This document shows positions 7,535-60,761 of a DNA stretch of 64,000 nt, piece by piece. The notes under the pieces were generated by a model. That model was not told the DNA's origin and ran no database searches. It worked only from the letters and a program-made list of their open reading frames with translations. The stretch comes from a virus. Every line of letters begins with the position of its first letter. Position 1 is the first letter of the stretch. The position numbers and the translations under genes were made by a program. The stretch lies in the IMG/VR virus record IMGVR_UViG_3300045988_182490, one strand, 5' to 3'.

Positions 7535-7540
7535 TTTTTA

Positions 7541-7609: not shown

Positions 7610-7621
7610 GTTTATATTTTT

Positions 7622-7713: not shown

Positions 7714-7718
7714 TTTAT

Positions 7719-11547: not shown

Positions 11548-11573
11548 AATAAAAGAATGAGAGGTATTAAAAT

Positions 11574-43959: not shown

Positions 43960-44319
43960 ATGATACATCTCGAAAACGGGCATATTTATGAACTCACGAG
44001 TGATTTCGATATTTATTCATGTGATGACGGAAAGATAACAGTAAAAGCCGGTGCCGTTTTTGTAGCTGAGCGTGGAAATAATAGAATAATAAATGGCAGA
44101 GAATTGCCTTTTTACAATATATATATTTTACGGTCAAAAAGTTATCTTCCTTATTCATCCGCCTGTATATTTCAATCAATCAGTGGTATAACAATTAAAG
44201 AAATCACGATGGATATGTTGGATAAAGAAGCATTTGCAGGGTATCTACCATGGAATATCCGATTCGGAACAAATAGCAGTATCAGAGCAATGCAAAAAAT
44301 GATGGAGGAACGAAAATGA
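43960..44319 (+). CDS. hypothetical protein
   Basis: 119 aa. Confidence 0.45.
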   Translation: MIHLENGHIYELTSDFDIYSCDDGKITVKAGAVFVAERGNNRIINGRELPFYNIYILRSKSYLPYSSACIFQSISGITIKEITMDMLDKEAFAGYLPWNIRFGTNSSIRAMQKMMEERK

Positions 44320-45101
44320 TCTATATTACAGGAGATATTCATGGAGATCCCACAAGATTTTCCAAAGAAGCGTTTCCAGAACAATCAAAAATGACAAAAG
44401 AGGATTACGTTATTGTCTGTGGAGATTTTGGACTCGTATGGGATCAAATGGAATCAAGAACAGAAGAATATTGGCTTAACTGGCTTCAGAATAAGCCGTT
44501 CACTACATTATTCGTGGATGGTAATCATGAAAATCATGATAGATTGGATGCTATGCCAGTATCTGAATGGAATGGAGGAAATGTTCACTTTGTAAGACCT
44601 AATGTTATTCATTTAATGCGAGGCCAGGTATTTACTCTTTGTGAAAAAACATTCTTTACGTTTGGAGGAGCATCTTCCCATGATATCCAGGATGGTATTT
44701 TGGATCCTGATAATTATCAGTACGGAATTAAAGATCCTCTATTCAAAGAAGATAAAAAGAAGTTAGATGATAGAAGAGCCATGTACCGTATCAAGAGAGT
44801 ATCCTGGTGGGAACGTGAGCTTCCTAGCGAACAGGAGATGTCTGAAGGAATCGAAAATCTTAAGAAATACGGAAATAAAGTGGACTATATTATTTCCCAT
44901 AGTCCGTGCACCAGTGATATGTTCCTAATGGGCGGTAAAGGCATTTACCAGCCGGATATTATTTCGAACTATCTGGAAGAAGTAAGAGCCACAACGGAGT
45001 ATAAGAAATGGTATTTTGGACATATGCATATCAATAAGCAGGTGTCTATGCAGGATATTTGCTTGTATGAGCAAATTTTATTTGTCCCTACTTGTCAATA
45101 A
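44316..45101 (+). CDS. calcineurin-like metallophosphoesterase
   Basis: 261 aa; GDIHGD, GDFGLVWD, GNHENHD motifs; stop codon lies within first bases of IscB element copy 1. Confidence 0.8.
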   Translation: MIYITGDIHGDPTRFSKEAFPEQSKMTKEDYVIVCGDFGLVWDQMESRTEEYWLNWLQNKPFTTLFVDGNHENHDRLDAMPVSEWNGGNVHFVRPNVIHLMRGQVFTLCEKTFFTFGGASSHDIQDGILDPDNYQYGIKDPLFKEDKKKLDDRRAMYRIKRVSWWERELPSEQEMSEGIENLKKYGNKVDYIISHSPCTSDMFLMGGKGIYQPDIISNYLEEVRATTEYKKWYFGHMHINKQVSMQDICLYEQILFVPTCQ

Positions 45102-45361
45102 CCCATCACTAAAGTGACGGGCTTGTAAAAGCCCGATATTGACTAGCCTAAGTGTTTCGAACACTACGTTACGAGAGAATATATAGTCACCTGCGGATGT
45201 AATACCTAGTCTGCAGCTCTGAGGTCCGTGATTAAACAGTCCTGTTGGATAGGGACAGTGTTGCGGATATCCAAAACCTCTCATTAACATTGGCGAAGGT
45301 ATCATTACAGAGGAATGACCTCTGATTTATGTGATTTGGTTCACAGAAAGGAGTGCCTGTT
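45100..45361 (+). ncRNA. putative omega RNA (IscB guide scaffold), copy 1
   Basis: about 260-nt non-coding, GC-enriched, hairpin-rich region between IS left end and iscB start, canonical omega-RNA position. Confidence 0.6.
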
Positions 45362-46633
45362 ATGGTATATGTTCTTAACATTGACGGACAGCCGCTTATG
45401 CCCACTGACAGGCATGGAAAGGTCCGGCATCTTTTGAAAGACGGCCGGGCGGAAGTAGTAAAGCGCTGTCCGTTTACCATACGACTGTTGTATGACAGCA
45501 CGCACTATACACAGGATATCGTATTAGGTGTGGATGCCGGCAGCAAACATATCGGTTTGTCGGCCACCACAGAAACAAAAGAACTCTATGCTTCCGATGT
45601 GGAGCTAAGAAATGACATTGTGGATCTGATTTCCACACGCAGACAGAACCGCCGGTCACGGCGTAATCGTAAGATTCGTTATCGGAAGGCTCGTTTTCAG
45701 AACAGGGTATCCGGAAAGAAAAACTGGTTGGCTCCCAGTATCCGGCAGAAAGTCGATACACATATGACCGTGGTATCCAGAGTATGCATGATACTTCCGG
45801 TTACAAAGATCATCGTGGAGACAGCTTCTTTTGATATCCAGAAGATCAAGGATCCGGATATCAGTGGTACTGGTTATCAGCAGGGAGAGCAGCTCGATTT
45901 CTGGAACGTCCGGGAGTATGTATTATCCCGGGATGGTCATACCTGCCAGTGCTGCAAAGGCAAATCCAAGGATCCGGTGCTCAATGTACATCATATCGAG
46001 AGCCGAAAGACTGGTGGCGATGCTCCCAATAACCTGATCACCTTATGTGAGACATGCCATAAGAGTTATCACTCAGGTGCGGTGCAGCTGCCGAAAGCCA
46101 TCCATCGTGGCATGAGATTCAAGGATGCTGCATTCATGGGAGTCATGCGATGGAATTTCTATAACAAACTGAAGGAAATCTATGAGCTACAGGGCATTGA
46201 GATACGTATGACATTTGGGTATCTCACAAAGAATACCCGTATCCGTCATCATCTGCCAAAGGAGCATTACATAGATGCCAGGTGCATCAGCGGTCATCCG
46301 GAAGCAATACCCAGCAACGAAGTTTTCTATCAGAAGAAGGTTCGCTGCCATAACCGCCAGATACATAAGAACACTATCCTTAAAGGTGGTATCCGAAAAC
46401 GAAATCAGGCCGGCTATCTGGTAAAAGGCTTCCGGCTGTTCGATAAAGTAGCTTACAAAGGCAGAGAGTACTTCATTTTTGGACGCAGGCAAAGTGGATT
46501 CTTCGATTTGCGGAATCTGTCCGGATGCAAAGTAAACAAAGGCAGTCTCAGTTACCGGAAGATCGGATTTCTGGAACCGAGACAATACTATTTATGTGAA
46601 AGGAGAGTAATGGACACCCAGGGCTGTGCTTAA
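45362..46633 (+). CDS. iscB: IscB RNA-guided nuclease (PLMP-RuvC-BH-HNH-RuvC)
   Basis: 423 aa; PLMP (GQPLMP), RuvC-I GVDAGSKHIGLS, Arg-rich bridge helix, RuvC-II IIVETASFD, HNH CQCCKG...HHI...NLITLCETCH, RuvC-III EHYIDARC. Confidence 0.9.
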   Translation: MVYVLNIDGQPLMPTDRHGKVRHLLKDGRAEVVKRCPFTIRLLYDSTHYTQDIVLGVDAGSKHIGLSATTETKELYASDVELRNDIVDLISTRRQNRRSRRNRKIRYRKARFQNRVSGKKNWLAPSIRQKVDTHMTVVSRVCMILPVTKIIVETASFDIQKIKDPDISGTGYQQGEQLDFWNVREYVLSRDGHTCQCCKGKSKDPVLNVHHIESRKTGGDAPNNLITLCETCHKSYHSGAVQLPKAIHRGMRFKDAAFMGVMRWNFYNKLKEIYELQGIEIRMTFGYLTKNTRIRHHLPKEHYIDARCISGHPEAIPSNEVFYQKKVRCHNRQIHKNTILKGGIRKRNQAGYLVKGFRLFDKVAYKGREYFIFGRRQSGFFDLRNLSGCKVNKGSLSYRKIGFLEPRQYYLCERRVMDTQGCA

Positions 46634-46981
46634 CAGCACTCCTCCCACGACTAAAGTCACGGGTGCCCGTGCTAAGCGAATTTATGAAATATTACCTATA
46701 ATAACGAAGAGGGACAGATAGCTGTTCCTCTTTGTTATTATCTAAAAGGGATAGTATATTGGTACTTTCGATGTAAACGGGACAATAATCTGTGCCGGTT
46801 GCATAAAGGGATAATATACTATTCCTTTAAATTTATTAATTAAAGGAACATAATTCTATCACTTTCAATCATATAAGGGATATAATATTATCCTTTTAAC
46901 ATATAGCTTATAATTTTTAGAAATGATCTTTTTGTCTCTTTATCTGTCATATTAATGGTAGAAAAACAAACGGAGGTGCTT

Positions 46982-47770
46982 ATGTTAAAAGAATTACGCA
47001 GCAGATCCTTTACAAATGGAAAGGTATATGCATTAGAAACAGAGGATGGATATCCATTGGAAGTCACCGATACTTTTTTACCAAATTATACAAAGGACGC
47101 AATCAATAACAATGAAAACACACTGAAGACATATGAAGTTGGAGACCGGACCAATCGCTGGATGATTGGTGTTAGTTGTATGAGCGGCTGTCCTGTGCAT
47201 TGTAAGTTCTGCGCAACCGGAAAACTTAAAAGATGGCGTTGCTTAACAGCCGAAGAGATTGTAGCTCAGGTGGAATTTATTATCAAACAGAATCCGGAAT
47301 ATCGATTTGAAGATGCTTGGGAACATAAAATCAATTACACCAGAATGGGAGAGCCGTTCCTAAATATAGAAGAAGTAAAAAAAGCTATTCAGATGATTGA
47401 CGAAAAGTATCCAGGAACGCATCATTATATCTCTACAGTTGGATTACAGGGAAGCGATTTTAGCTGGATTAAAGACAATATTACGTTACAAGTTAGCTTA
47501 CATAGTCTTGATGAGGAAAGACGACACAATTTAATTCCTATCAGTAATCTGATGTCTATCGAAGAACTGGGCCAGATTCGGACAAATAGTAATTTAAAAA
47601 CAACTGTCAATATGACATTAGTTGACTATGAAGATTTTGACATCAATATCTTGACCAAATATTTTGATCCTAGATATTTTTTTATAAAATTAAGTCCTAT
47701 TAACGAGAACGAGATTTCTGAGAAAAATCATATGGGATCTGGTATTATCGAGAAAAGAAATTTGATGTAA
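46982..47770 (+). CDS. RlmN/Cfr-like radical SAM methyltransferase, N-terminal and core part (split gene)
   Basis: 263 aa; SCMSGCPVHCKFCATG (CxxxCxxC in RlmN-specific context), MGEPFLN, ISTVGL, VSLHSLDEERRHNLIPI align with RlmN residues about 60-320. Confidence 0.65.
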   Translation: MLKELRSRSFTNGKVYALETEDGYPLEVTDTFLPNYTKDAINNNENTLKTYEVGDRTNRWMIGVSCMSGCPVHCKFCATGKLKRWRCLTAEEIVAQVEFIIKQNPEYRFEDAWEHKINYTRMGEPFLNIEEVKKAIQMIDEKYPGTHHYISTVGLQGSDFSWIKDNITLQVSLHSLDEERRHNLIPISNLMSIEELGQIRTNSNLKTTVNMTLVDYEDFDINILTKYFDPRYFFIKLSPINENEISEKNHMGSGIIEKRNLM

Positions 47771-47791
47771 TACGCAAAGGAGGAAAAACTC

Positions 47792-47917
47792 ATGGAGAAA
47801 ATCGCAAATCAGTTAAGGGCAGCAGGTTATGATTACGCAGTTGCCATTGCGACTGAAGCAGAAATTACTGCAAAAGCTGCATGCGGCCAGTTAGCCATTA
47901 TTACTGAGGATAAGTAA
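47792..47917 (+). CDS. RlmN-like C-terminal fragment carrying conserved ACGQL cysteine motif (separate micro-ORF)
   Basis: 41 aa with own AAAGGAGG RBS; LRAAGYDYAVAIATEAEITAKAACGQLAI parallels RlmN ...[27 protein letters not shown]. Confidence 0.55.
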   Translation: MEKIANQLRAAGYDYAVAIATEAEITAKAACGQLAIITEDK

Positions 47918-47968
47918 TCGTTAACAGGAAATGCCCCACTCAGGGGCATTTTCTATGGAGGAAAAAAT

Positions 47969-48769
47969 ATGTTACATAATCATAGAGTGTTCCGGTATCG
48001 AATTATCACGAATTTTCATTGTAATCAGAACTGTTATTTTTGCTTTCAGCCGGAAAAGCGAGAAAAGATATTAGATATTGAAAAAATGGAAGATACTATG
48101 AAAAAGGTAGGTATGTTGGAAAGAGCTACCATTATGGGCGGAGAGAGTTTACTTTTACCGAATATCGTAGATTATTTCAAAGTAGTGCATAAATATGTAA
48201 ATACAATTTGCCTGGTAACAAACGGTACGAAGTTAACTGAAGATTTGACAAAAGCTTTAGTAGAAAATGGACTGGAAGAAATGGCAATCTCTATATCTTC
48301 TAAAGAACAATATAAGGCCAGAAGAGAACAGATACTGATTGCAAAAAAGTACGTGCCTAATTTACGCATCAATCTTCCAAAATCTTGGGAGTCTACTGGG
48401 GAAAAGTTATATGAACTTGTTGATATGATTTTAGCAGATGATATCGGCGTGGTTGTATGTGAAGATCTTATGGGCAGATACAATTTAAACTATAAAAACA
48501 GCTATGAAGATCTGCTTTATGGTATGGGCGCTAAATTATTACGCAGTGATGGACATAATTTCTTCACGTTTGAGTGGAAGGGAAAAGAATTTGGGTTGTT
48601 TGGGTATCACGGAGATAAAAACGCATCCGCAGATACGGAAGAAGCCGGATACGAAAAGACAGATATTATCATTGCACCGAATTGTCATTCTGATGAACGG
48701 TATTCCCATAAAGTCTATTCTGTGTGGGAAGATTACTGCCATGATATAGGAAACCACGACTTGGCATAG
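47969..48769 (+). CDS. radical SAM domain protein (MoaA/PqqE-like core, no SPASM extension)
   Basis: 266 aa; ITNFHCNQNCYFCF (CxxxCxxC), MGGESLLL, LVTNGTKL. Confidence 0.65.
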   Translation: MLHNHRVFRYRIITNFHCNQNCYFCFQPEKREKILDIEKMEDTMKKVGMLERATIMGGESLLLPNIVDYFKVVHKYVNTICLVTNGTKLTEDLTKALVENGLEEMAISISSKEQYKARREQILIAKKYVPNLRINLPKSWESTGEKLYELVDMILADDIGVVVCEDLMGRYNLNYKNSYEDLLYGMGAKLLRSDGHNFFTFEWKGKEFGLFGYHGDKNASADTEEAGYEKTDIIIAPNCHSDERYSHKVYSVWEDYCHDIGNHDLA

Positions 48770-48778
48770 GAGTGCAGT

Positions 48779-49213
48779 ATGCTTAAAATTGATTTTGGCA
48801 GCGGATATAATCCATATCCTGGATATAAAACATGTGATATTACTCAAGGTCCCTATTTAGATTATGTATACAATACAGAGACAAACGAAATTATTGGATT
48901 GCAAGAAGGATCCGTTGATGAATTTCGCCTTAAAAACGTACTACATCATGCTGATATACCGAAGGTGATTCAGTGTCTCCACAGATATTTAAAATCAGGC
49001 GGAATTCTGCAAATTATTGAACCAAGGACGGAGTATTACGAACAAAACCGGTGTCTGGATCTGTTTTGGTATCGTTACATTTATCCGAGATATGAAATAG
49101 CAATTCCTCCCAAAAGGAGAGTTGACTACTTAAAAATATGCGAGGCATATTTTAAAATCTCATCACATCAAAATGCAGATGTTTATGACGTTTATTTTTT
49201 TGTTAACCGATAA
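48779..49213 (+). CDS. small class I SAM-dependent methyltransferase-fold protein
   Basis: 144 aa; motif I KIDFGSGYNP, motif III LKSGGILQI. Confidence 0.5.
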   Translation: MLKIDFGSGYNPYPGYKTCDITQGPYLDYVYNTETNEIIGLQEGSVDEFRLKNVLHHADIPKVIQCLHRYLKSGGILQIIEPRTEYYEQNRCLDLFWYRYIYPRYEIAIPPKRRVDYLKICEAYFKISSHQNADVYDVYFFVNR

Positions 49214-49248
49214 TAATTAGCAGAACCTTATATAAGGAGTAAATATAT

Positions 49249-49974
49249 ATGCTATCTTTTTTACAAAAATTAATTAATAGTAAAAATAATACAGTAATAT
49301 CTTCAAAACAAGATGCTGTCACTGCAAATAGTGACGACTTAATTCAGGAAAAGCCAATACCTAACTGCAAAAATGCTTTCCATATATTAATCATTACAGA
49401 TACGCATTGTCATATGAGAAAAGAACAAATAGAAGACTTTCTCTCTGACATCGAAGATAAAATTGATATTGTCTTTATATTAGGTGATATGAGCGAAAGA
49501 GATATGTTCGTTGCAAAAGAAATAGCTAAAAAATATAAAGCTCTCATCTATGGAATTCTTGGTAATCATGATTATGATGGACAATTAGAAGAAATGGATA
49601 TTCCAAATTTTGAAGGAAAGATGATAGAATTTAATGGAGTTACGTTTACAGGAATGCACGGAAGCTTTAAATATAAGAACTCTGACGCACCTATGTTAAC
49701 TAACGAAGAGAGTATAGAATTAGCAAAAATACTACCAACTTGTGATATTTTTCTTACTCACGATAAAGCTAGAACAAATAATGAAGAAAATTCGCATAGT
49801 GGATTAGAAGGCATAACTCAGTATATTTTAGATAAAAAACCAGAATATCATATTCATGGACATCTTCATGAAAATATGAACGAAAATATTGGCGGAATTA
49901 GTTCTTTGGGATTTTGTAGATATGCATATATCGAAGTATCTAAAAATGGATTAAAAATCAAAAAGATTTTTTAA
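49249..49974 (+). CDS. calcineurin-like metallophosphoesterase
   Basis: 241 aa; ILIITDTHCH, ILGDMSE, ILGNHDYD, GMHGS motifs. Confidence 0.75.
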   Translation: MLSFLQKLINSKNNTVISSKQDAVTANSDDLIQEKPIPNCKNAFHILIITDTHCHMRKEQIEDFLSDIEDKIDIVFILGDMSERDMFVAKEIAKKYKALIYGILGNHDYDGQLEEMDIPNFEGKMIEFNGVTFTGMHGSFKYKNSDAPMLTNEESIELAKILPTCDIFLTHDKARTNNEENSHSGLEGITQYILDKKPEYHIHGHLHENMNENIGGISSLGFCRYAYIEVSKNGLKIKKIF

Positions 49975-50087
49975 AGATAGTTCACTGAAATAAAGTACGA
50001 CAAAAAGCTCCTGTTACAAAGAGGTAAAATCAGATAAAGAACAATAAATCATTAAAAACATGGACGTAAAAATTTCTGTGCAGAAAT

Positions 50088-50115
50088 TTGCAATAATTTT
50101 CAAAGCTGTTATAAT
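50088..50115 (+). promoter_or_regulatory. sigma70 promoter (TTGCAA-16-TATAAT) driving sRNA copy B
   Basis: consensus -35/-10, TGTTATAAT extended -10. Confidence 0.6.
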
Positions 50116-50121
50116 AGCATT

Positions 50122-50203
50122 ATCAGATGAAGAACACATCTGATTTCCCCTTTTATCTTTGATGAAGATCCCCGGAACTTTCCCCTCCGGGGATCATTTT
50201 TTA
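50122..50203 (+). ncRNA. small RNA, family copy B
   Basis: 5' hairpin TCAGATG-AAGAACA-CATCTGA, core CCCTTTTATCTTTGATGAAGATC, terminator ATCCCCGGAACTTTCCCCTCCGGGGAT + T6. Confidence 0.55.
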
Positions 50204-50361
50204 TACATATATTTTCTTCCATATTATTTGTATAAACAAAGGAATTCAAAATAAAAACCAATATACTCAAAATCAAGATATTTTACGGTGAATTTTGTGC
50301 AGAAATTTACAGTGTTTTTAAATTTAATCTATCATATTAATATCAGAAAGGTGGTATAATT

Positions 50362-50634
50362 ATGACATGTTATGACAGTAAAGAAGGATCATTCCCTATT
50401 AGTTATAAAGATTGCCAGTTACTGGCTGATGCCTGCGAAGAGCAAATAATTCAAATGGAGAAAAACCTGGAAGAGATTAGTCCGGAAAAATATTTGCGCT
50501 ACAAGGAATTGCATCAGTATTTTCTTGGTATTCGGAAACTTATGGAAGCTCGTAAAATCAAGGAAGAAAATGCCAAAAAAGAAGAGGAAAATTTTCGAAA
50601 GCAGCTTACTGAAAGCTTGCAGAATCAGCAGTAA
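50362..50634 (+). CDS. hypothetical coiled-coil protein
   Basis: 90 aa. Confidence 0.45.
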   Translation: MTCYDSKEGSFPISYKDCQLLADACEEQIIQMEKNLEEISPEKYLRYKELHQYFLGIRKLMEARKIKEENAKKEEENFRKQLTESLQNQQ

Positions 50635-50706
50635 TTGCTATATAATAGCAATAGTCAAAAATTTAAAGCTGGGAAAAATCCCAGCTTTTGTTATGAGGAG
50701 AAAATT

Positions 50707-51162
50707 ATGTTTGATGGATTAAAATTAATGGATGCTCACGGATCCAGATTAGATATGGAATTTGAATTCGATTGGTTTTTGAGAACAATAGAAGTGAATT
50801 GTCCCAATAGATGGAATGAAGTAAGGGATGCTTTATATCATCTATTTTGTGGCGCCATGCGAGTGATTACAGATTATCGGTGGATTCCAGAATGCAAGGA
50901 AACAATTCTTTCAGGAATCAACATAACCTGTGAATTAAAAGAAGACGAAAACGGAAAAAGAGAAAGTAAGTCACTCGGTAAATGGACATTTTATCTAAAC
51001 GTAAAATCCGGGACGACTTCAAAAGAAACTATAGAAAATCTGGAAAAAGATATGGAACGTTTCCTTCGTGCAAGATTTAATATTAAAGAGTCTCATGATC
51101 TGAATGTTGTACGAGAAGAGTATGAACGGAAGAAATTGCTGGAGAAGATTATTTTGCAGTAA
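50707..51162 (+). CDS. hypothetical protein (weak HEPN-like Rx6H near C-terminus)
   Basis: 151 aa; GAGGAG RBS. Confidence 0.45.
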   Translation: MFDGLKLMDAHGSRLDMEFEFDWFLRTIEVNCPNRWNEVRDALYHLFCGAMRVITDYRWIPECKETILSGINITCELKEDENGKRESKSLGKWTFYLNVKSGTTSKETIENLEKDMERFLRARFNIKESHDLNVVREEYERKKLLEKIILQ

Positions 51163-51201
51163 AAGACCTATAATAGCATAATATATATAGGAGGATTTTC
51201 T

Positions 51202-51549
51202 ATGAATTTTGTTATTCCGAGCGAAAGACATCAAAAGTCATTAGAATACGCTGTTAATAAAGCATCTGCTTCACCGATTTTTCCATATATAAGAAATATT
51301 GTTTTATTTGGTAGCTGTGCAAGAGGAGATTTTCATTGGTCCAGTGATGTAGATTTGCTATTTATTATGGATGATTCGTTTAATGATCACACCGAATTAA
51401 AGAGCGATTTGTTTACGTTACGGGGGAATATAAGTCCAATTGATTCTGAATGCCCGGAAGTCGATGCTAAATTCTATTCAGAGTCAAATTGGAAAAATCA
51501 AAACAGTTTCTTTTTGCAGAACGCTAGAAAGGATGGGATTGTGTTATGA
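51202..51549 (+). CDS. minimal nucleotidyltransferase (MNT/Pol-beta superfamily)
   Basis: 115 aa; LFGSCARGDFHWSSDVDLLF motif. Confidence 0.75.
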   Translation: MNFVIPSERHQKSLEYAVNKASASPIFPYIRNIVLFGSCARGDFHWSSDVDLLFIMDDSFNDHTELKSDLFTLRGNISPIDSECPEVDAKFYSESNWKNQNSFFLQNARKDGIVL

Positions 51550-51773
51550 TAAATACAAATAATGATATCAATTACTTCAGAAGGCTCTATAGATGATACA
51601 ATCGCGAATGCCAGGCAAAAGACTGCCGAAATTAACACTCAGCAATCATTGCCAATACAAAAGCATGATTCTAGCATACATTAAAAATATATACTTCACA
51701 TTTAATTTAAATGGAATTTTTTATCTTGCATATTATAACGGTTATCCGTTATAATATATATGAGGTGATTTTT

Positions 51774-53148: not shown

Positions 53149-53203
53149 CAAATTTTACACCGTCTATTTCTGTCATATTAACAGCAGAAAGGACGGTGTT
53201 TTT

Positions 53204-54073
53204 ATGTATATAGAAAAGTTAAGATCACTAATGGAAAAAGCTCCCGGTGAAGCAGCAGATATTGCAGAATACGCACAAATGTTAACAAAATACGTAAACA
53301 CAGTGGCAGATCAAGTACTGGCAACAGAAAGAAATCGAGCTTTTCTAATTTCTGAACGTATAGATCAGACTGAATACATTGCCAGAATCGAGCGAGCAAA
53401 TGATGAAAGAAACAAAGCACATGACAAAGCATGTGCTGCCTGCAAAAATATCAATGATATCGCAGCTAGGAACGGGAAGCAGAAGATATTCGATTTTGAG
53501 CCACAGATAGAAACTATAAACGGAAGAATGGTTTTCACACAGGATAATCATTATCATGTGGCAAAATTTTGCGCGGATCTTACAAATGAATTATTCGAAC
53601 AGGGCGCTTTACAAAAATCCGAGCATTTGATTGACGAAGTAGTGGAAAAAGCCAAAGAGAAACCATATCCGATCCTGCAGACTGCCGAAATGAGAGAAAA
53701 AATTACAGAATATGAGAACTTGAATAAGACAGAAGAATTACAAGGTTTTATGAATGATAGAAAATCCGGATCCATCAAATTAAGAGATGGAAGCATGCTT
53801 GAACTATCAAAGCCTAATTCTTATGGTGAATATGATGTAAAAACAGCAAATATTTCCGATCTTGGATCAGCTGATTTTTATTTTATAAAACGGGACAACA
53901 GTTTTATCGGAGAAGAAATTCCAAAAAATGTTATACAGGAAATAGCTGCCGATCATGGTGGTCCTATAGACATTAAAGAAACGGAACCTATGCGGTCACA
54001 ATTATTAGAGTCCATATTAAATGGAGATTATGATAGAACAGAAAATGAAGAAATTCCGGACATTTCTCATTAA
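53204..54073 (+). CDS. hypothetical protein
   Basis: 289 aa. Confidence 0.55.
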   Translation: MYIEKLRSLMEKAPGEAADIAEYAQMLTKYVNTVADQVLATERNRAFLISERIDQTEYIARIERANDERNKAHDKACAACKNINDIAARNGKQKIFDFEPQIETINGRMVFTQDNHYHVAKFCADLTNELFEQGALQKSEHLIDEVVEKAKEKPYPILQTAEMREKITEYENLNKTEELQGFMNDRKSGSIKLRDGSMLELSKPNSYGEYDVKTANISDLGSADFYFIKRDNSFIGEEIPKNVIQEIAADHGGPIDIKETEPMRSQLLESILNGDYDRTENEEIPDISH

Positions 54074-54170
54074 AAAAGAGGCGGATGTCACTTTGACACC
54101 ACCTTTTCTATTTTTTCATATTTGTTTTCTATCATATTAGTGTTAGAATAATAGAAAAACGGAGGAAGAA

Positions 54171-54518
54171 ATGCAGGGTATTAAATTGATAGAAGAAACA
54201 AAAACGGATAATCCCTGGGGCGGAAAACATATTATCCGTAAAATGCAGGGATATGGATATGATATCCGGATTGTTTTTGATACGGAAGGAGACTTTCCAT
54301 TACGACAAGTTTTTTTTGAACCAACAAAATGCAAAAATGAATTCCATTTTTTATTCAAACCGGTATATAATCCATCATTTCAGGAAAAAGGCATTGAGAG
54401 CATCTCAACTGTGAAACTTAACGTTGAAAAGCTGGATGAAATAACAGCGGAATTTGTTAATATTAAAGAAATGTTCCATGAGTTAAAAGAAAGAGAGGCA
54501 GAGCTATTTCATGAATGA
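54171..54518 (+). CDS. hypothetical protein
   Basis: 115 aa; ACGGAGG RBS. Confidence 0.5.
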   Translation: MQGIKLIEETKTDNPWGGKHIIRKMQGYGYDIRIVFDTEGDFPLRQVFFEPTKCKNEFHFLFKPVYNPSFQEKGIESISTVKLNVEKLDEITAEFVNIKEMFHELKEREAELFHE

Positions 54519-54849
54519 TAATATTTTCGAAAATATTATGCTATTAGTTATTGATGGAACTAATTCAACAGATCCAGATACATCCGAGCTTGCAATAGAT
54601 GTATTAAAATCGGCAATCCGTTACGCAAAATACCGGATGGATTTCGCAATCAATGATAATGCATGGAAAATGGAGAATGACAAATATCGGACCTCGGCAC
54701 ATAACCGTTTCATGGACTGTCTCAATATCTATTTACGGTATTTGAAGAATAGTGGAATGAAAGTTATTGATTTGTCTGAATATGATCGGAAAACGCTGGG
54801 AGATATCGCTTGTTATATAGCATATAAAACAGCAATTTTGCAAAGATAA
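54511..54849 (+). CDS. hypothetical protein
   Basis: 112 aa; overlaps upstream gene. Confidence 0.45.
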   Translation: MNDNIFENIMLLVIDGTNSTDPDTSELAIDVLKSAIRYAKYRMDFAINDNAWKMENDKYRTSAHNRFMDCLNIYLRYLKNSGMKVIDLSEYDRKTLGDIACYIAYKTAILQR

Positions 54850-54868
54850 GAAAAGACCAATGATTAAT

Positions 54869-55435
54869 TCATTGGCCTTTTTTATCGCATTTTAATTCGG
54901 GATGAGCATATAAATATTTTTTAACATGATACTGTATACATCCAACAGAGCAGTTATATTTTTGAGACATTTGCGCATAAGATATTTTATTATAAAGATA
55001 ATCTTCTGCAATAGTAATTGTTTTTTGACCCAATTTTTCAGGCAGAATAGAACAAATTTTCTTTTGTCTCATTTGATCTTTTTTATGAAATTTAATATAT
55101 CTTTCTACGGTTGATAATGAAAGCTGATATTTTTCAGCAAGAACTCGCATTGATACTTTATTTTCATTATTATATTCTTCTATTATTTTCTTTTTAATCA
55201 AATCTCGTTTTGTTTCTGCAAAAGTATTTTTATTTTTATACAAATTCACATAATGCTGCACAAGGCTAATGCTGCAATTATGAGATAATGATATTTCTTT
55301 CCATGTTTTGCCTTCTTTAAAATATTCTTCCCCTATCTGATTGGAAATTTCAGTAATATATTTTTTGCTCCTATGACTATCATTAATGAGTGGATTGACA
55401 ATAATAGTCTCTACTTTATTTTCTTGATTTTGCAT
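54869..55435 (-). CDS. DNA-binding protein with three HTH repeats (minus strand; repressor/transposase-HTH-like)
   Basis: 188 aa; three approx 50-aa repeats each with an HTH-like segment; one of only three minus-strand genes right of the IS66 fragment. Confidence 0.5.
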   Translation of the reverse strand: MQNQENKVETIIVNPLINDSHRSKKYITEISNQIGEEYFKEGKTWKEISLSHNCSISLVQHYVNLYKNKNTFAETKRDLIKKKIIEEYNNENKVSMRVLAEKYQLSLSTVERYIKFHKKDQMRQKKICSILPEKLGQKTITIAEDYLYNKISYAQMSQKYNCSVGCIQYHVKKYLYAHPELKCDKKGQ

Positions 55436-55581
55436 GTAATATTACCTCTGATCTAAATAATATTTATTCCATAATAACAAAAATAATTCACAATAACAAT
55501 ATTTTTGCATACATTTTCTTTCATATTAATTTTGTATATATGAAAAATGGAGAAAACCATTAAAAACAGAAAGGATTTTTT

Positions 55582-56526
55582 ATGAATATCGTATTACTTG
55601 TTATTGGTGTTGTAGCTGCAATTTTGGGAATTATAATTAGAATTTTGACGAAGGATACTGGTTATGTAAAGCTCGGCAAACATTATGCACATCCTATGAT
55701 TATCGGTGGCCTTATACTACTGGTATTTAGTCAGTCGTTTGCAATTATTCCAACTGGATATACCGGAGTACGAATTACATTCGGACAGATTGATAATCGA
55801 ACGGTTCAGAATGGATTTAACTGGAAGATTCCTTTTGTGCAGTCTATTAATCAGGTCAACAATAAACAGCAGGATATTTCCTATACCGGCCAGGTTTGGA
55901 GTGAGACTGCTGAGCGTACCGTTTTATACTATGAAGGAATAACTGTCACATACACAATTAACCCCGAAAAGAGCGCCTGGATCTATGCGAACGTATCAGA
56001 TTATAAGAAAAATCTGATTTCAGATAATCTTGTTGCATCCGCAATCAAGAGTAGCAGTAAGGAACTGAATTCTACAGATGCAACCAATCGTGGAATCATT
56101 GAACCTATTGCACAGGAAAAGATTCAGGAAGCTTTAGATCAAAAGTATGGTCCCGATGTGGTATTTATCAATAAGGTAGTTATCGCAAATACTGACTTTG
56201 AAGAAAGCTATAATCAGGCCATTGCAGATAAACAGACTGCGCAGCTTGCGTATGAAAAGCAGCAGATTGAAAATAAACGGCAGATTGAAGCGGCGGAAGC
56301 AGATGCTCAGGTTAAAACGACGCAGGCAAAAGCTGAAGCTGACGCAGCTGTAATTAAGGCGCAGGGCGAGGCGGATGCAAATAAACTTTTGAATGATTCC
56401 ATTACGGATAAGATTTTGAGACAGCAGTATTATGAAAAGTGGAACGGACAGCTACCTAATGTTATTACCGGTGATTCCAGTGACATTATTATGGATATTG
56501 GAAAAACAACATTGGGAGAAGAATAA
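55582..56526 (+). CDS. SPFH/band-7 (prohibitin/HflC-K-like) membrane protein
   Basis: 314 aa; two N-terminal TM, TGYTGVRITFGQI...NWKIPFVQSI SPFH core, Ala/Gln-rich coiled coil. Confidence 0.8.
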   Translation: MNIVLLVIGVVAAILGIIIRILTKDTGYVKLGKHYAHPMIIGGLILLVFSQSFAIIPTGYTGVRITFGQIDNRTVQNGFNWKIPFVQSINQVNNKQQDISYTGQVWSETAERTVLYYEGITVTYTINPEKSAWIYANVSDYKKNLISDNLVASAIKSSSKELNSTDATNRGIIEPIAQEKIQEALDQKYGPDVVFINKVVIANTDFEESYNQAIADKQTAQLAYEKQQIENKRQIEAAEADAQVKTTQAKAEADAAVIKAQGEADANKLLNDSITDKILRQQYYEKWNGQLPNVITGDSSDIIMDIGKTTLGEE

Positions 56527-56693
56527 TTTGAAAAAGAAACATTAAACTTTCTTCAGACTGTATAATAAACGCTTTTGGCCAGCTGGCCAGAAGCGTTTAT
56601 TATACACATACATATTCATGATAACAATATTTTTGCATGTATTTTCTTTCATATTAATTTTATAAAATAACTTTTCGATAGGAGAATGAGTAT

Positions 56694-57326
56694 ATGTATG
56701 GAAAAATGATGATTGAGGAATTGAAACGTTTCTTTAATACAGATGAGCTAAAGCCAAGTATTGTGGTGCTGGATGTCGGTGTTTTCTTCCCATATGCGAA
56801 TCAGGATATTTTGAAGTTTGATATGGGTTTGAACGAACTCCCTCTGGATGCAGGACGGTTTGATGATATGAAGTTCAACCATAGATATCCGAACCGTAAT
56901 TATGTGACTCTGTCCTGTATTAACGAGCGGAAAATCAGTCGTGTGGGCTATCCTATTATAGGCGAAGTTGCGGAAATGACTGGAGAGAAGTATCTGTGTA
57001 TGGATTATGGCATTGGGGATTCTAATAAAATTTCTATTGTGGTTCCTATCATGTTCAATTTAACAGAGGATGCTCCCTGTGCGACAATACAGGTAAGAAT
57101 GAATCTGCGGAATCCAAATGAGCCGACTTTCAGTATTCATGTACATATTCCGTTAGATAAGGAAGAATGGAAAGTCATGAACTATTGGTCTCATGACGAG
57201 GTGCCGGAAGATGATTATAATGAACTGCTTATACCAGATGTGGCATTAACTTCCGAGAAAGATTGCAGAATCGTATATGAGCCGATTGTAATAAATGGCT
57301 ACGGAGAAAACGATATGGTCGTTTAG
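56694..57326 (+). CDS. hypothetical protein
   Basis: 210 aa. Confidence 0.55.
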   Translation: MYGKMMIEELKRFFNTDELKPSIVVLDVGVFFPYANQDILKFDMGLNELPLDAGRFDDMKFNHRYPNRNYVTLSCINERKISRVGYPIIGEVAEMTGEKYLCMDYGIGDSNKISIVVPIMFNLTEDAPCATIQVRMNLRNPNEPTFSIHVHIPLDKEEWKVMNYWSHDEVPEDDYNELLIPDVALTSEKDCRIVYEPIVINGYGENDMVV

Positions 57327-57639
57327 ATGCAATCTGCATCAGCTGAAGAAGCATCAAACAGAGAGCTAATAAGGTTTCTTTTTTTATGAGAAAAGTGGTT
57401 AATACAGATCAAGATATTGCATATTTTTTAAATTGATTTTCAAACAATTACTTTTACAAAAGTCTATTGTTTATGCTGTGTTGCAAGCATTTACATCCAC
57501 TTAACGGATGTATTTTAAACATCAATATTTTTATTCTTATTTTTAAGGAATATAAAATATGAAATATTATTTTTTCAAATAATTGTTTCCATAATTTCTT
57601 TCATATTAATTGTATCAAAAGAAAATTGGAGGAAACGAA

Positions 57640-58236
57640 ATGGACAAATTTGAAATATTTAATAACACAAATTTAGGACAGCTCACCGCTATATTTGGAG
57701 ACAATGGCAATATTTGGTTCCTGACAAAAGATGTTGCTAAAATTTTGTGTATGAAGGCAGAGCATGCTCTTCGTTTAGTTGATCCTGAAGATAGAACTGA
57801 ATTTTTCATCAATATCGGAACCGGCAGACGTAAATATCAGTGTGTAAATGAATACGGTATTTATGAAATGATTTTCGCATCCAAGAAACAGGAAGCAAAA
57901 ACATTCCGTAAGTGGGTGACTCATGAAGTATTGCCGTCTATTCGTAAAAACGGTGGTTATATCATTGGACAGGAAGAATTGAAAGGAGAAGAGAAAGAAA
58001 AACTGGAAGAACAGATTCGTCAGTTGGCAAAGCAGGTAAACGCTTACAGAGAAGACGGAAATCTTTGGATGAATATGTATTTTAACATTCAGAAAGATTA
58101 TCTGGATGCTGTTGAAAAAATCTATGGAAAAAAGACCAATATTGCAAACGATAAAACAACAAAGACAGAATATGTTGTTTCCCCCGAAGGATGGATTCTT
58201 CCAAAATCCCTATATTTATTGAACGATAATGATTAA
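57640..58236 (+). CDS. Bro-N domain antirepressor-like protein
   Basis: 198 aa; Bro-N motifs FNNTNLGQLTAIFGDNGNIWFL ... FRKWVTHEVLPSIRKNGGY. Confidence 0.8.
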   Translation: MDKFEIFNNTNLGQLTAIFGDNGNIWFLTKDVAKILCMKAEHALRLVDPEDRTEFFINIGTGRRKYQCVNEYGIYEMIFASKKQEAKTFRKWVTHEVLPSIRKNGGYIIGQEELKGEEKEKLEEQIRQLAKQVNAYREDGNLWMNMYFNIQKDYLDAVEKIYGKKTNIANDKTTKTEYVVSPEGWILPKSLYLLNDND

Positions 58237-58354
58237 TTTAGGCAGCTTTGGCTGCCTTTTTTATATAAAACCGTGAAAAAGCAGACTGTATAATTGGTAT
58301 AGGATTCCATAAAAATAATGTCATATTAATTATATATAATATAAGTCAATAACC

Positions 58355-58612
58355 CATCACTAAAGTGACGGGTTTGTAAAAGCCCGATATTGACTAGCCT
58401 AAGTGTTTCGAACACTACGTTACGAGAGAATATATAGTCACCTGCGGATGTAATACCTAGTCTGCAGCTCTGAGGTCCGTGATTAAACAGTCCTGTTGGA
58501 TAGGGACAGTGTTGCGGATATCCAAAACCTCTCATTAACATTGGCGAAGGTATCATTACAGAGGAATGACCTCTGATTTATGTGATTTGGTTCACAGAAA
58601 GGAGTGCCTGTT
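58355..58612 (+). ncRNA. putative omega RNA, copy 2
   Basis: same sequence as copy 1 scaffold. Confidence 0.6.
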
Positions 58613-59884
58613 ATGGTATATGTTCTTAACATTGACGGACAGCCGCTTATGCCCACTGACAGGCATGGAAAGGTCCGGCATCTTTTGAAGGACGGCCGGG
58701 CGGAAGTAGTAAAGTGCTGTCCGTTTACCATACGACTGTTGTATGACAGCACGCACTATACGCAGGATATCGTATTAGGCGTGGATGCCGGCAGCAAACA
58801 TATCGGTTTGTCGGGCACCACGGAAACAAAAGAACTCTATGCTTCCGATGTAGAGCTCAGAAATGACATTGTGGATCTTATTTCCACACGCAGACAGAAC
58901 CGCAGGTTCCGTCGTAATCGTAAGACACGGTACCGGAAAGCCCGATTCCTGAACCGGTTATCCGATAAGAAGGACTGGTTGGCTCCCAGTATCCGGCAGA
59001 AAGTCGATACCCACATGACCGTGGTATCCAGAGTATGTAAGATACTTCCGGTCACAAAGATCATCGTGGAGACAGCATCCTTTGATATCCAGAAGATCAA
59101 GGATCCGGATATCAGTGGTACTGGTTATCAACATGGTGAGCAGCTCGATTTCTGGAACGTCCGGGAGTATGTATTATTCCGGGATGGACATACCTGCCAG
59201 TGCTGCAAAGGCAAATCCAAGGATCCGGTACTCAATGTACATCATATCGAGAGCCGTAAGACTGGCGGCGATGCTCCCAATAACCTGATCACCTTATGTG
59301 AGACCTGTCATAAGGGTTATCACTCAGGTGCGGTGCAGCTGCCGAAAGCCATCCATCGTGGCATGAGATTCAAGGATGCTGCATTCATGGGAGTCATGCG
59401 ATGGAATTTCTATAACAAACTGAAGGAAATCTATGAGCTACAGGGCATTGAGATACGTATGACATTTGGGTATCTCACAAAGAATACCCGTATCCGTCAT
59501 CATCTGCCAAAGGAGCATTACATAGATGCCAGGTGCATCAGCGGTCATCCGGAAGCAATACCCAGCAACGAAGTTTTCTATCAGAAGAAGGTTCGCTGCC
59601 ATAACCGCCAGATACATAAGAACACTATCCTTAAAGGTGGTATCCGAAAACGAAATCAGGCCGGCTATCTGGTAAAAGGCTTCCGGCTGTTCGATAAAGT
59701 AGCTTACAAAGGCAGAGAGTACTTCATTTTTGGACGCAGGCAAAGTGGATTCTTCGATTTGCGGAATCTGTCCGGATGCAAAGTAAACAAAGGCAGTCTC
59801 AGTTACCGGAAGATCGGATTTCTGGAACCTAGACAATACTATTTATGTGAAAGGAGAGTAATGGACACCCAGGGCTATGCTTAA
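58613..59884 (+). CDS. iscB: IscB RNA-guided nuclease, copy 2
   Basis: 423 aa, all IscB motifs intact. Confidence 0.9.
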   Translation: MVYVLNIDGQPLMPTDRHGKVRHLLKDGRAEVVKCCPFTIRLLYDSTHYTQDIVLGVDAGSKHIGLSGTTETKELYASDVELRNDIVDLISTRRQNRRFRRNRKTRYRKARFLNRLSDKKDWLAPSIRQKVDTHMTVVSRVCKILPVTKIIVETASFDIQKIKDPDISGTGYQHGEQLDFWNVREYVLFRDGHTCQCCKGKSKDPVLNVHHIESRKTGGDAPNNLITLCETCHKGYHSGAVQLPKAIHRGMRFKDAAFMGVMRWNFYNKLKEIYELQGIEIRMTFGYLTKNTRIRHHLPKEHYIDARCISGHPEAIPSNEVFYQKKVRCHNRQIHKNTILKGGIRKRNQAGYLVKGFRLFDKVAYKGREYFIFGRRQSGFFDLRNLSGCKVNKGSLSYRKIGFLEPRQYYLCERRVMDTQGYA

Positions 59885-60284
59885 CCGCACTCCTCCCACG
59901 ACTAAAGTCACGGGTGTCCGTGCTAAGCGAATTTATGAATATAGCCACGTATCAAACAACGCCAGAACTGGAAAGAAAAACTCAATTCATCAAACAATAA
60001 GTAACAAGTAAATAAGATTGATTATATTGTTTTCTGCAACCAAAACTTTTATACACTTTTTCTGACATAATATAGTTGAAGAGAAAACTGGAGAAACTTT
60101 TTTACGGATTTAAGATAAAAAATCCGTTTGACCTTATAGATTTTACTTTTATAACTCCGGAATGTGACCGGAGATAACATAAACCAACCTTTTTCTTAAG
60201 ATACAGTCCAACCGGATGGACAAAATGTACTGCTTCATCCGGTTACGGAAGCAGTTACAATAATTAATAAAGAGGGAAAATGCA

Positions 60285-60659: not shown

Positions 60660-60761
60660 TTGTTGAGTAATTCCTTCCAAACTATATAGTGCTCCCGCCG
60701 AGCGAAACATTTCTTACTGTTTCCGGCGGGGAAACAGTATGGCCAATATGGAGGGCAAAAT

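Follow-up and report, generated by a model that had tools for sequence, protein, structure and literature searches.

Within the window, a 64,000-nt stretch of viral DNA (IMG/VR record IMGVR_UViG_3300045988_182490), two near-identical iscB genes are found at separate sites of a phage-like genome: This raises the question of what kind of element they belong to, how it came to occupy both sites and what it may do in the phage population. Both units are canonical non-autonomous IscB elements, each made up of a full-length HEARO-type omega RNA gene, an intact iscB for a 423-aa protein and two hairpin-bearing ends (the right-hand one of 50 nt), without a transposase (Table 1). The two copies are direct repeats of 1,590 bp that differ by 51 substitutions and no indel, i.e. 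they are 96.8% identical; the preliminary description was right about the pair and its orientation, whereas its identity value (about 98%) was too high and its unit ends (45092-46687 and 58347-59938) are replaced by those of Table 1. The differences are not scattered, as 46 of the 51 fall in element positions 346-971, a single one in the first 345 nt and none in positions 972-1485. The GC content of the unit is 46.6% versus 36.2% for the whole window, and the flanking DNA of the two copies is unrelated.

Table 1. Features of the two IscB elements and their insertion sites (window coordinates).
Feature	Position	Strand	Remarks
Calcineurin-like phosphoesterase gene	44316..45101	+	Pfam Metallophos; last 12 codons replaced by copy 1
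Inferred guide, copy 1	45078..45093	+	TTATTTGTCCCTACTT; phage flank directly 5' of scaffold; HEARO model begins 45094
IscB element copy 1	45094..46683	+	non-autonomous, IS200/IS605 (ISC) type; bounds from empty site and extent common with copy 2
Omega RNA (HEARO) scaffold, copy 1	45094..45324	+	RF02033 match 45094-45308, 142.1 bits, model positions 1-211 of 211
iscB copy 1	45362..46633	+	423 aa; AGGAG ribosome-binding site upstream; Pfam RRXRR and HNH
Right-hand end, copy 1	46634..46683	+	transposase-defined left end on minus strand; carries motif ACTAAAGTCACGGG
Target/TAM pentanucleotide ATGAA, site 1	46684..46688	+	TTCAT on minus strand; present in empty allele
Segment between copies	46684..58344	+	11,661 bp; absent from variants L031, L049, L060, L037
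Terminator-like hairpin after Bro-N	58240-58257	+	upstream of copy 2
Promoter-like motif, variant of one repeated in the phage	58314-58328	+	AATAATGTCATATTA; directly upstream of guide 2
Inferred guide, copy 2	58329..58344	+	ATTATATATAATATAA; HEARO model begins 58345
IscB element copy 2	58345..59934	+	1,590 bp; identical insertion and context in assemblies from many other samples
Omega RNA (HEARO) scaffold, copy 2	58345..58575	+	RF02033 match 58345-58559, 140.3 bits; terminal hairpin 58559-58575
iscB copy 2	58613..59884	+	423 aa; 13 amino-acid differences from copy 1
Right-hand end, copy 2	59885..59934	+	hairpin CACGGGTGTCCGTG at 59909-59922
ATGAA TAM, site 2	59935-59939	+	doubles as start of 75-aa gene
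75-aa gene remnant	59935..59966	+	32 nt left before 158-nt deletion junction 59966/59967; comparison with L026, L032, L035, L038

Repeats that exceed read or k-mer length confuse assemblers, many contigs break within the element, and one scaffold (ERZ28597643 scaffold_391, L054 plus L028) reads A-IscB-B-IscB-B like a walk through a repeat loop. An assembly artefact, by duplication (as considered in the preliminary description) or by wrong joining of one repeat, is nevertheless effectively refuted by the 51 differing positions, the four different flanks and the recurrence of the junctions in other samples and assemblers (L018, L020-L027, L040, L053, L061-L067). The two-copy arrangement is also present in other assemblies, including a 51-kb scaffold and an independent 172.6-kb contig, where the copies are 13,256 bp apart (13,251 bp here).

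In both copies, the region directly upstream of iscB on the same strand matched the Rfam HEARO family (RF02033) over its full length, with scores above the gathering score of 83; the covariance-model check thus bears out the proposed nature of the leader as omega RNA. The scaffold of copy 1 ends in a terminator-like hairpin (CAGAGGAATGACCTCTG, 45308-45324) followed by a T-rich tail. The sequence GTCAATAA, previously taken as the common flank and candidate TAM on the 5' side, is the first helix of the scaffold and lies inside the element: GTCAAU corresponds to HEARO model position 1, pairs with 45135-45141 and is missing from the empty site (see below). The minus-strand ORFs predicted in the leaders, previously supposed to be artefacts, are not conserved in relatives (open frame of 42-65 codons versus 82-83 codons here). 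The 16 nt that directly precede each copy are putative guides; from the sequence, we infer their length, the transcription start and the nuclease activity of both copies. No other match of guide 1 plus ATGAA was found in the window with up to 4 mismatches.

Both proteins contain the Pfam domains RRXRR (219 and 215 bits for copies 1 and 2) and HNH, match solved IscB structures in the PDB (E=1e-47) and possess the motifs PLMP (11-14), D58, E153, C195/C198, H210/H211 and H302/D305, which agrees with the complete IscB with split RuvC described before; the 13 amino-acid differences all lie outside these motifs. The catalytic residues align with those of OgeuIscB and other solved IscB-omega RNA complexes (PDB 7utn, 7xht, 11hr; E=1e-45 to 1e-47) in the same domain order as in OgeuIscB (PLMP, RuvC-I, bridge helix, RuvC-II, HNH, RuvC-III), whereas the sequences are divergent and the phage protein is shorter (423 versus 495-496 aa). 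According to published residue numbers, GstIscB (Geobacillus stearothermophilus, IS605 family) has its catalytic Asp at the same position 58 (dead mutant D58A), and the two His residues of HNH are numbered 210/211 here versus 209/210 there. The TAM of OgeuIscB is different and looser.

Between the copies, the dN/dS ratio of iscB is 0.107 at a dS of 0.13, and 98 of the 120 matches listed are distinct 423-aa alleles with at least 93% identity. The population also contains IscB alleles with frameshifts, nonsense interruptions or internal deletions. That both copies are inert relics that neither move, cut nor home and matter only as passive repeats would fit the absent TnpA and the circulation of such damaged alleles together with a miniature derivative; this reading is improbable in view of the intact ORFs, motifs, omega RNA and ends of both window copies, the low dN/dS ratio (0.11) across this dS, and the numerous distinct full-length alleles among the matches listed.

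The ends carry the related motifs ACTAAAGTGACGGG (45108-45121 and 58359-58372) and ACTAAAGTCACGGG (46650-46663 and 59901-59914), each followed by a hairpin, consistent with the earlier notion of a right end related to the left one; the right-hand subterminal hairpin of copy 1 is CACGGGTGCCCGTG (46658-46671), and the right end of copy 2 has a single difference located in the hairpin loop. The boundaries could be fixed exactly because an empty allele of site 1 is available: In L055, from another gut metagenome, CCCTACTT is directly followed by ATGAAATATTACC, with guide 1 (TTATTTGTCCCTACTT) abutting the latter, so that its 16 nt are contiguous with ATGAAA; exactly the 1,590 bp of copy 1 are missing and a target duplication is absent. 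Among the site-1 alleles seen, 21 were occupied and only this one was empty. As noted earlier, the upstream phosphoesterase gene takes its stop codon (TAA, 45099-45101) from copy 1; the element contributes two codons plus this stop in place of the native last 12 codons, and the protein of 261 aa terminates in LFVPTCQ (271 aa and LFVPTYEILPIITKRDR in L055).

Both copies start with GTCAAT and end with GAATTT, and the true common flank is the 3' pentanucleotide ATGAA. It also adjoins the ends of the related elements L059, L001, L002/3/5 and L004 and of a miniature copy (R3) in L060, where a third site is occupied by a 369-nt derivative that lacks the gene but retains the omega RNA and the two ends. 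Its minus-strand form TTCAT equals the TAM of wild-type GstIscB (Meers et al., bioRxiv 10.1101/2023.03.14.532601). The GstIscB element is likewise non-autonomous, with a HEARO-type omega RNA upstream of iscB, a bounding transposon end, a flank-derived guide and the target TTCAT (ATGAA on the iscB strand), and is co-oriented with the upstream gene, as was found for iscB elements (Meers et al., bioRxiv 10.1101/2023.03.14.532601).

The locus of site 2 is rearranged, and no simple empty allele was seen among the IscB-less genomes compared: In place of the element, these carry genes for 210 aa and 75 aa on a 923-nt cassette, so that the occupied allele also involves deletions of 733 nt and 158 nt. 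In the IscB-less alleles the same promoter-like motif precedes the 210-aa gene; the four alleles (L026, L032, L035, L038), possibly of one lineage, carry ATTATATATgATATAA followed by ATGAAA, i.e. a mismatched protospacer in every case. The deletions adjoining site 2, the absence of a transposase and the evident recombination between the copies might suggest that copy 2 stems from phage DNA that was duplicated as a segment or recombined ectopically, and not from transposition to a new target. This origin is highly improbable, however, since the similarity is bounded at identical nucleotides (GTCAAT to GAATTT) with only ATGAA common in the flanks, the empty site 1 is without precisely the element, and the third site in L060 as well as related elements elsewhere have the same relation to ATGAA.

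With respect to mobilisation, no Y1_Tnp was detected among the 71 window ORFs (best 25 of 48 matched Pfam families, the 25th at E=2.5e-6), as previously stated for both units, and a cognate TnpA was found neither in the window nor in the source contig or any of the fetched loci. This differs from the GstIscB element, which moreover resides in a bacterial chromosome instead of a large gut phage; in general, tnpA lies close to iscB in only about 1.5% of cases (Meers et al., bioRxiv 10.1101/2023.03.14.532601). The core of the former interpretation, TnpA-less IS200/IS605-type elements mobilised in trans in a phage-like genome, is retained; the attribute "recent" is not, given the inter-copy dS of 0.13 and the presence of both insertions in assemblies from many different samples. 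Very probably, the two units are canonical non-autonomous IS200/IS605 IscB elements with flank-derived guides, which are mobilised in trans, home and recombine with each other.

The carrier is a large, probably temperate phage. Each copy lies directly 5' of ATGAA on the iscB strand, i.e. 3' of TTCAT on the strand that a Y1 TnpA would use; the transposase must have been supplied in trans, most likely by the bacterial host of the phage. The transcript of the omega RNA would include some 16 nt of the phage DNA upstream, which becomes the guide; it would arise by read-through from the phosphoesterase gene for copy 1 and from the promoter-like motif for copy 2. The IscB-omega RNA complex would recognise guide plus ATGAA, a combination expected only in genomes without the element at that site: Occupied genomes have the guide followed by GTCAAT and would be spared, while the intact combination in the empty allele suggests that copy 1 is programmed to cut it. 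Cleavage of an empty allele (sister chromosome, co-resident or co-infecting relative) and repair from the occupied copy would reinstall or spread the element along with some flanking DNA.

Free-standing phage homing endonuclease genes (reviewed in PMC13565253) resemble the present case in their presence or absence at a fixed locus among related phages, in a target confined to the element-free allele and in a short patch of near-identical flanks in a divergent genome (cf. their localized marker exclusion or co-conversion); the IscB element differs from them in that recognition would depend on an RNA guide and a 5-nt TAM instead of protein, and that new loci can also be reached by transposition. 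A candidate for such a patch is found in L030: A stretch of about 2.8 kb centred on copy 2 has 98-100% identity with the window in most 100-nt intervals (two exceptions: 85% and 94%), versus only about 60-80% beyond, and L030 is 94-96% identical to the IscB-less L029 over most compared stretches. The 124-aa gene on the right side of the patch is conserved in L029 too. The patch could come from ordinary homologous recombination without help of the nuclease.

The occupancy of site 1 in 21 of 22 alleles, the strong purifying selection (dN/dS 0.11) on elements that have no linked transposase, the location of copy 2 directly behind a phage promoter-like motif, the mismatched protospacer in 4/4 IscB-less site-2 alleles and this converted patch in a divergent phage could also indicate that the elements are kept for a phage benefit and are not purely selfish, e.g. 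as RNA-guided weapon against related competitor phages or for accessory-gene turnover. On balance, this is unlikely: The guides are simply the sequences adjoining each copy, as with any selfish IscB element, neither an extra or reprogrammed guide nor an off-target with TAM in the window was seen, selfish homing alone explains the purifying selection, and inactivated alleles occur.

Aside from homing, the 1.6-kb direct repeats and, in relatives, the 369-nt third copy provide portable homology. The segment between the copies encodes two radical SAM proteins, a phosphoesterase, nucleotidyltransferases and SPFH/Band_7, HTH and Bro-N proteins. Of the deletion or inversion anticipated for it, the former is found as deletion-type junctions in L031, L049, L060 and L037 from other metagenomes; the latter is not expected, because simple recombination between direct repeats can yield deletion, not inversion. 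In L060 the switch from copy-1 to copy-2 type falls across the 514-nt identical stretch, where L049 also changes type; an identical 1-nt frameshift occurs at site 2 (L023, L025) and in the deletion-type L049, and the diagnostic SNP table revealed patchy exchange between site-1 and site-2 copies. The miniature copy resembles PATEs, which are related to ISGst elements (Meers et al., bioRxiv 10.1101/2023.03.14.532601), and other miniature IS200/IS605 derivatives in being gene-free with both ends and omega RNA; it differs from PATEs by its complete guide-RNA gene, and could in principle be served by the IscB of full-length copies.

Relatives of the phage IscB (67-72% identity) are located on IMG/VR contigs of 73-202 kb. 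Goltsman et al. 2022 (PMC9755519), who catalogued the nucleases for editing, assigned more than 16% of the fragments encoding HEARO to viruses or prophages; sites free of the element, a match of guides to such alleles and exchange between copies within a population of phages do not appear to be described there. The element type is ordinary, and the pair sits in a common human-gut phage: To judge from the related phage genomes, the element is missing from some, present in others, recombined in some and apparently copied from one lineage to another, and recombination between its copies homogenises parts of them and deletes the accessory segment of 11.7 kb from some lineages of the phage.

The window is part of an 80,216-bp human-gut metagenome scaffold (ENA ERZ28596134, LIJU14-1 scaffold_186), and related contigs were found via exact-protein look-ups of the genes neighbouring the two IscB units. 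In one of these, the 99.7-kb scaffold L055, site 1 is empty: the phosphoesterase gene is directly joined to the radical-SAM gene (...ATTTTATTTGTCCCTACTT|ATGAAATATTACCTATAATAACG...), and in the window the same two flanks are parted by GTCAAT...GCGAATTT. Copy 2, situated at site 2 between the Bro-N gene and a 124-aa gene, begins and ends with the same bases (...ATATAATATAA|GTCAAT...GCGAATTT|ATGAATATAGCC). Judged from the empty and the occupied site 1 together with the ends of copy 2, the element is a clean 1,590-bp insertion without target duplication. The stretch GTCAATAA, regarded in the preliminary description as the flank common to both insertions, lies within the element, at position 1 of the HEARO (omega RNA) model in the 5' strand of its first helix; the flank that the two insertions really have in common lies 3' of the element, namely ATGAA. 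The proposal to map a shared 5' flank as candidate motif beside the target (TAM) was therefore placed on the wrong side. ATGAA is found in the empty allele and at both copies, and it adjoins the same end of four related IscB elements in other loci (L059, L001, L002/3/5 and L004; 67-77% protein identity) as well as of a miniature element that locus L060 carries at a third site. The last 50 nt of each unit (ACTAAAGTCACGGG plus a hairpin) mirror the opposite end (ACTAAAGTGACGGG plus a hairpin); both ends share the motif ACTAAAGTSACGGG and a subterminal hairpin, and terminal inverted repeats are absent. At copy 1, the phosphoesterase gene has lost its last 12 codons and ends instead with two codons plus a stop that belong to the element (261 aa here vs 271 aa in the empty allele), in agreement with the earlier view that the copy supplies the stop codon of this gene.

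Coordinates of the two IscB-omega RNA elements and their parts in the window
Feature	Coordinates	Strand	Sequence, match or remark
Element copy 1 (site 1)	45094-46683		1,590 bp
Element copy 2 (site 2)	58345-59934		1,590 bp
Omega RNA, copy 1	45094-45308	+	Rfam HEARO RF02033, 142.1 bits
Omega RNA, copy 2	58345-58559	+	Rfam HEARO RF02033, 140.3 bits
Terminator-like hairpin behind omega RNA, copy 1	45308-45324		
Terminator-like hairpin behind omega RNA, copy 2	58559-58575		
Putative guide 1	45078-45093		TTATTTGTCCCTACTT; 16 nt directly upstream of omega scaffold
Putative guide 2	58329-58344		ATTATATATAATATAA; 16 nt directly upstream of omega scaffold

The supposition that the leader represents an omega RNA was borne out by covariance-model comparison: both matches span model positions 1-211 of 211 and exceed the gathering score of 83 for RF02033. 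The match is positioned directly upstream of iscB on the same strand and ends 54 nt before the start codon; the terminator-like hairpin is followed by an AGGAG ribosome-binding site and the ATG of iscB. The 423-aa open reading frames match Pfam RRXRR (219 and 215 bits) and HNH, and solved IscB structures in the PDB at E=1e-47. All parts previously ascribed to a complete IscB were recovered, i.e. PLMP (residues 11-14), the arginine-rich bridge helix (93-110), the split RuvC and the inserted HNH domain, with intact catalytic residues (D58, E153, H210/H211 and H302/D305 align to the OgeuIscB motifs; C195/C198 are also present). The two proteins differ at 13 amino acids, all of them outside the PLMP, bridge-helix, catalytic and Cys motif residues, and the dN/dS value between the copies (0.107; dN 0.014, dS 0.133) shows, as far as codon comparison can, purifying selection on iscB. 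Both units would encode an IscB nuclease predicted to make double-strand breaks in a guide- and TAM-dependent manner. The antisense reading frames in the leaders (45078-45305, 58326-58556) are best read as artefacts, as formerly assumed: related elements do not keep them open.

Relatives of the protein in IMG/VR attain at most 72% amino-acid identity, and no near match to the element was found in INPHARED phages. The exact 28-mer of the omega RNA 5' end is absent from IMG/VR and occurs at five loci in GTDB genomes; these were rejected as the same insertion sequence, since they match just 29-63 nt of the element (L011-L014, without a confirmed iscB) or carry a diverged iscB (L015, 64% amino-acid identity). 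Very short remnants with the exact 28-nt 5' end and no iscB, located in MAGs of Clostridiaceae and Acholeplasmataceae (L012 at ~4213 and L014 at ~294, reverse-complement coordinates; ATGAAA follows 10 nt after the 28-mer in L012), might represent footprints or mini-elements.

As had been noted, neither unit carries a Y1 TnpA: no Y1_Tnp was present among the 71 window ORFs in the best 25 of 48 matched Pfam families (weakest E=2.5e-6). The search for a cognate IS200/605 tnpA yielded none in the window, in that part of the source contig which extends past its right end, or in the fetched loci; near the iscB of L059 (356-kb NCBI contig, IscB 77% identical) there are just an IS607-type resolvase and a TnpB. 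Only about 1.5% of iscB genes are located near tnpA (Meers et al., bioRxiv 10.1101/2023.03.14.532601). Since absence of the transposase is the usual state of iscB elements, and all sequence-testable features that define an IscB nuclease and a non-autonomous ISC element were found, the units are classified on that basis as non-autonomous (ISC-type) elements of the IS200/IS605 superfamily. Their transposition would depend on a Y1 transposase acting in trans, and excision by such an enzyme would leave the donor joint ...CCCTACTT|ATGAAAT. A composite transposon (IS-11.7-kb segment-IS) was considered and rejected: the radical-SAM contigs all have the same phage context, and no transposed copy was seen. 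A 442-aa ORF at 33241-34569 weakly matches a PHROG family annotated as 'transposase' (phrog_506, E=5.7e-10) and is unlike a Y1 HUH transposase in both size and match.

The wild-type TAM of GstIscB is TTCAT, the reverse complement of ATGAA, and iscB elements are mostly co-oriented with the upstream gene (Meers et al., bioRxiv 10.1101/2023.03.14.532601); the TAM, the scarce linkage to tnpA and the co-orientation all fit the units described here. From the start of the omega scaffold, ATGAA as TAM and these published GstIscB features, the 16-nt upstream flanks are interpreted as putative guides, with transcription and guide length being predicted. Guide 1 and the adjoining ATGAAA are unbroken in the empty allele L055, and GTCAAT comes directly after the guide once the site is occupied. 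No window site with four or fewer mismatches to either guide, followed by ATGAA, was detected.

The presence of two direct copies with unrelated flanks was confirmed by repeat search and pairwise alignment; their identity, formerly put at about 98%, amounts to 96.8% (51 substitutions and no indels over 1,590 bp). The differences are unevenly spread: one falls within the first 345 nt of the element, 46 at positions 346-971 (the 5' half of iscB), none at 972-1485 and four close to the 3' end. The G+C content is 46.6% in the unit vs 36.2% in the window, and 11,661 bp separate the copies. Assembly duplication as their source is excluded, because all four junctions were seen again in other samples and an independent 172.6-kb contig carries both copies, 13,256 bp apart. 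The window holds two copies, and L060 has the miniature copy with the same ends. Site 1 contained the element in 21 loci and lacked it in one (L055); a metagenome scan with the site-1 left flank retrieved seven loci, all of them occupied, and empty-site patterns gave no match in IMG/VR in either search.

When the 51 diagnostic positions were scored in all fetched copies, copy-1-type patches appeared in site-2 copies of many samples, and vice versa; this patchy exchange explains the mosaic divergence in the window. The deletion between the copies that had been predicted does occur: L031, L049, L060 and L037 have the order phosphoesterase-IscB-124-aa gene without the 11.7-kb segment, and the switch from copy-1 to copy-2 type in L060, like the type change in L049, falls across the 514-nt identical stretch. 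Recombination between the copies and its deletion products are thereby shown at the level of genotypes. A frameshift (G lost at CDS position 975) is common to the site-2 copies of L023 and L025 and the deletion-type L049. The miniature element in L060 (5138-5506; GCA_964261755.1, CAXVQW010019366.1), which has an HU gene on one side and a sigma-70/PARP module on the other, comprises 369 nt: the omega RNA together with 76 nt of iscB and, from the end of the element, the final ~25 nt. It is an element with a guide RNA only, which might be served in trans by the full-length copies. L019 and L051 represent recombinants of the miniature with copy 2 and copy 1, respectively; in both (L019 8038-12597, L051 8591-12317) the element leader is joined to genes of a sigma-70-like factor, a PARP-domain protein, an excisionase and a tyrosine integrase, a module which suggests that the phage is temperate and that large accessory parts can be lost. 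One scaffold (L054 plus L028) reads A-IscB-B-IscB-B; it may be an assembler loop and was given no weight.

The best reading of the source is a large, probably temperate phage of a gut bacterium: candidate ORFs of the window are mostly on one strand, PHROG matches include anti-repressor, methyltransferase and virion-protein families, related contigs reach 172-176 kb (some with integrase and excisionase), and protein matches are remote only (jumbo Caulobacter phages, 24% identity; SPbeta-like phages, 38%). The window further contains one plus-strand array of 33 tRNA genes (3552-7714) that covers most amino acids, including several long-arm Ser, Tyr and Leu tRNAs; at 7539-7611 the predicted tRNA has an unusual anticodon of 2 nt, and suppressor tRNAs are absent from the calls. 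In the stretch 51202-53148, a nucleotidyltransferase gene (NTP_transf_2/Polbeta) is followed by a 188-aa and a DUF6036 gene, and in the relatives L026 (1663-2542) and L035 (1-596) by a HEPN-domain gene instead; these partners look like exchangeable modules of toxin-antitoxin or defence type. The phage lineage also harbours a mobile element of another kind: one relative, L034, encodes a group II intron reverse transcriptase (10819-12102; 427 aa, RVT_1 and GIIM), downstream of the equivalent of the window's right end.

The slot between the Bro-N and the 124-aa gene is polymorphic and exhibits three states: the IscB element in many contigs; a 923-nt cassette with a 210-aa and a 75-aa gene in L026 (~6706-7628), L032, L035 and L038; and another cassette in L029 (4166-5724) with an Endonuclea_NS_2 gene and two small genes. 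The 210-aa gene is a distant paralogue of window 56694-57326, and the 75-aa gene is Cys-rich. In the IscB-less allele, the left flank (...ATTATATATgATATAA|ATGAAAGG) corresponds to guide 2 with one mismatch, followed by the TAM; all four alleles with the 923-nt cassette have this protospacer variant, ATTATATATGATATAA. The 75-aa gene persists behind copy 2 as its first 32 nt (ATGAATATAGCC...CCAGA), fused to its 3' end over a 158-nt deletion. From this remnant and the comparison with the cassette, the occupied site 2 differs from the IscB-less allele by an insertion and two deletions. The element may have entered at the promoter-proximal ATGAA, with 733 nt being deleted afterwards, or at the ATGAA with which the 75-aa gene starts, in which case sequence upstream of it was deleted later.

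Thirty copies of the motif TCTGWCATATTA are present in the window, where 1.5 would be expected; it is nearly always on the plus strand and ~30-40 nt upstream of start codons (e.g. 1133, 10099, 40389, 41707, 42880, 46943 and 53169), and is probably a phage-specific promoter. A variant of it directly precedes copy 2, and a sigma-70 promoter scan around both copies gave matches no more numerous than in shuffled sequence; TCTGWCATATTA is the better candidate for expression of copy 2. A sigma-70-like factor is encoded in related contigs.

Cleavage and homing by IscB and its omega RNA are predicted from the arrangement of targets: at site 1, the element-free allele contains the target, which insertion destroys, and in IscB-less alleles the site-2 target has one mismatch. 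A possible trace of such homing is found in a single case, L030. Its neighbouring DNA is ~60-80% identical to the window and, over most stretches compared, 94-96% identical to the IscB-less L029. A patch of ~2.8 kb (~57,950-60,750 of the window), comprising the element with ~400 nt to the left and ~800 nt to the right, is 98-100% identical to the window over most 100-nt intervals, with two intervals at 85% and 94%. This is what co-conversion in nuclease-induced repair would leave; ordinary recombination would also produce such a patch, and part of its right flank, the 124-aa gene, is kept in the IscB-less L029 anyway. With somewhat less than even confidence, we propose that in this widespread lineage of gut phages the IscB-omega RNA elements constitute a natural gene drive, guided by RNA and operating among related phages or prophages, and that they are portable recombination sites in addition. 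In the proposed drive, element-free alleles would be cut, and the element would be copied into them with a few hundred flanking bases; the L030 patch and the protospacer mismatch in four of four IscB-less site-2 alleles would be its traces. As portable recombination sites, the copies would allow accessory gene cassettes to be deleted or exchanged. That the elements benefit the phage is a less probable reading.

The element itself is not new, since IscB elements, their homing mechanism and their occurrence on viral contigs have been described. More than 16% of HEARO-encoding fragments are viral or prophage-derived according to Goltsman et al. (2022, PMC9755519), and the homing role of OMEGA nucleases has been published (Meers et al., bioRxiv 10.1101/2023.03.14.532601) and reviewed (PMC13565253). 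No publication describing RNA-guided homing between phages was found, which is weak evidence given the incomplete coverage of the literature. To our knowledge, the natural genotype set around one phage-borne IscB element is new relative to the literature compared: empty and occupied sites, a miniature, inactivated alleles, gene-conversion mosaics and deletion products are found side by side in a well-sampled natural case, the flanking genes being represented in well over a thousand blocks of a public assembly index. As a resource, it offers a compact 423-aa IscB with a TAM defined by sequence (ATGAA), a known omega RNA and at least 98 natural full-length variants among the matches listed. It is also well suited to studying whether RNA-guided nucleases are the drivers of their own phage-to-phage spread and whether they shape accessory regions of phages; if the proposed drive and recombination hold true, the copies would be a main cause of the hypervariability in this region of the phage genome.
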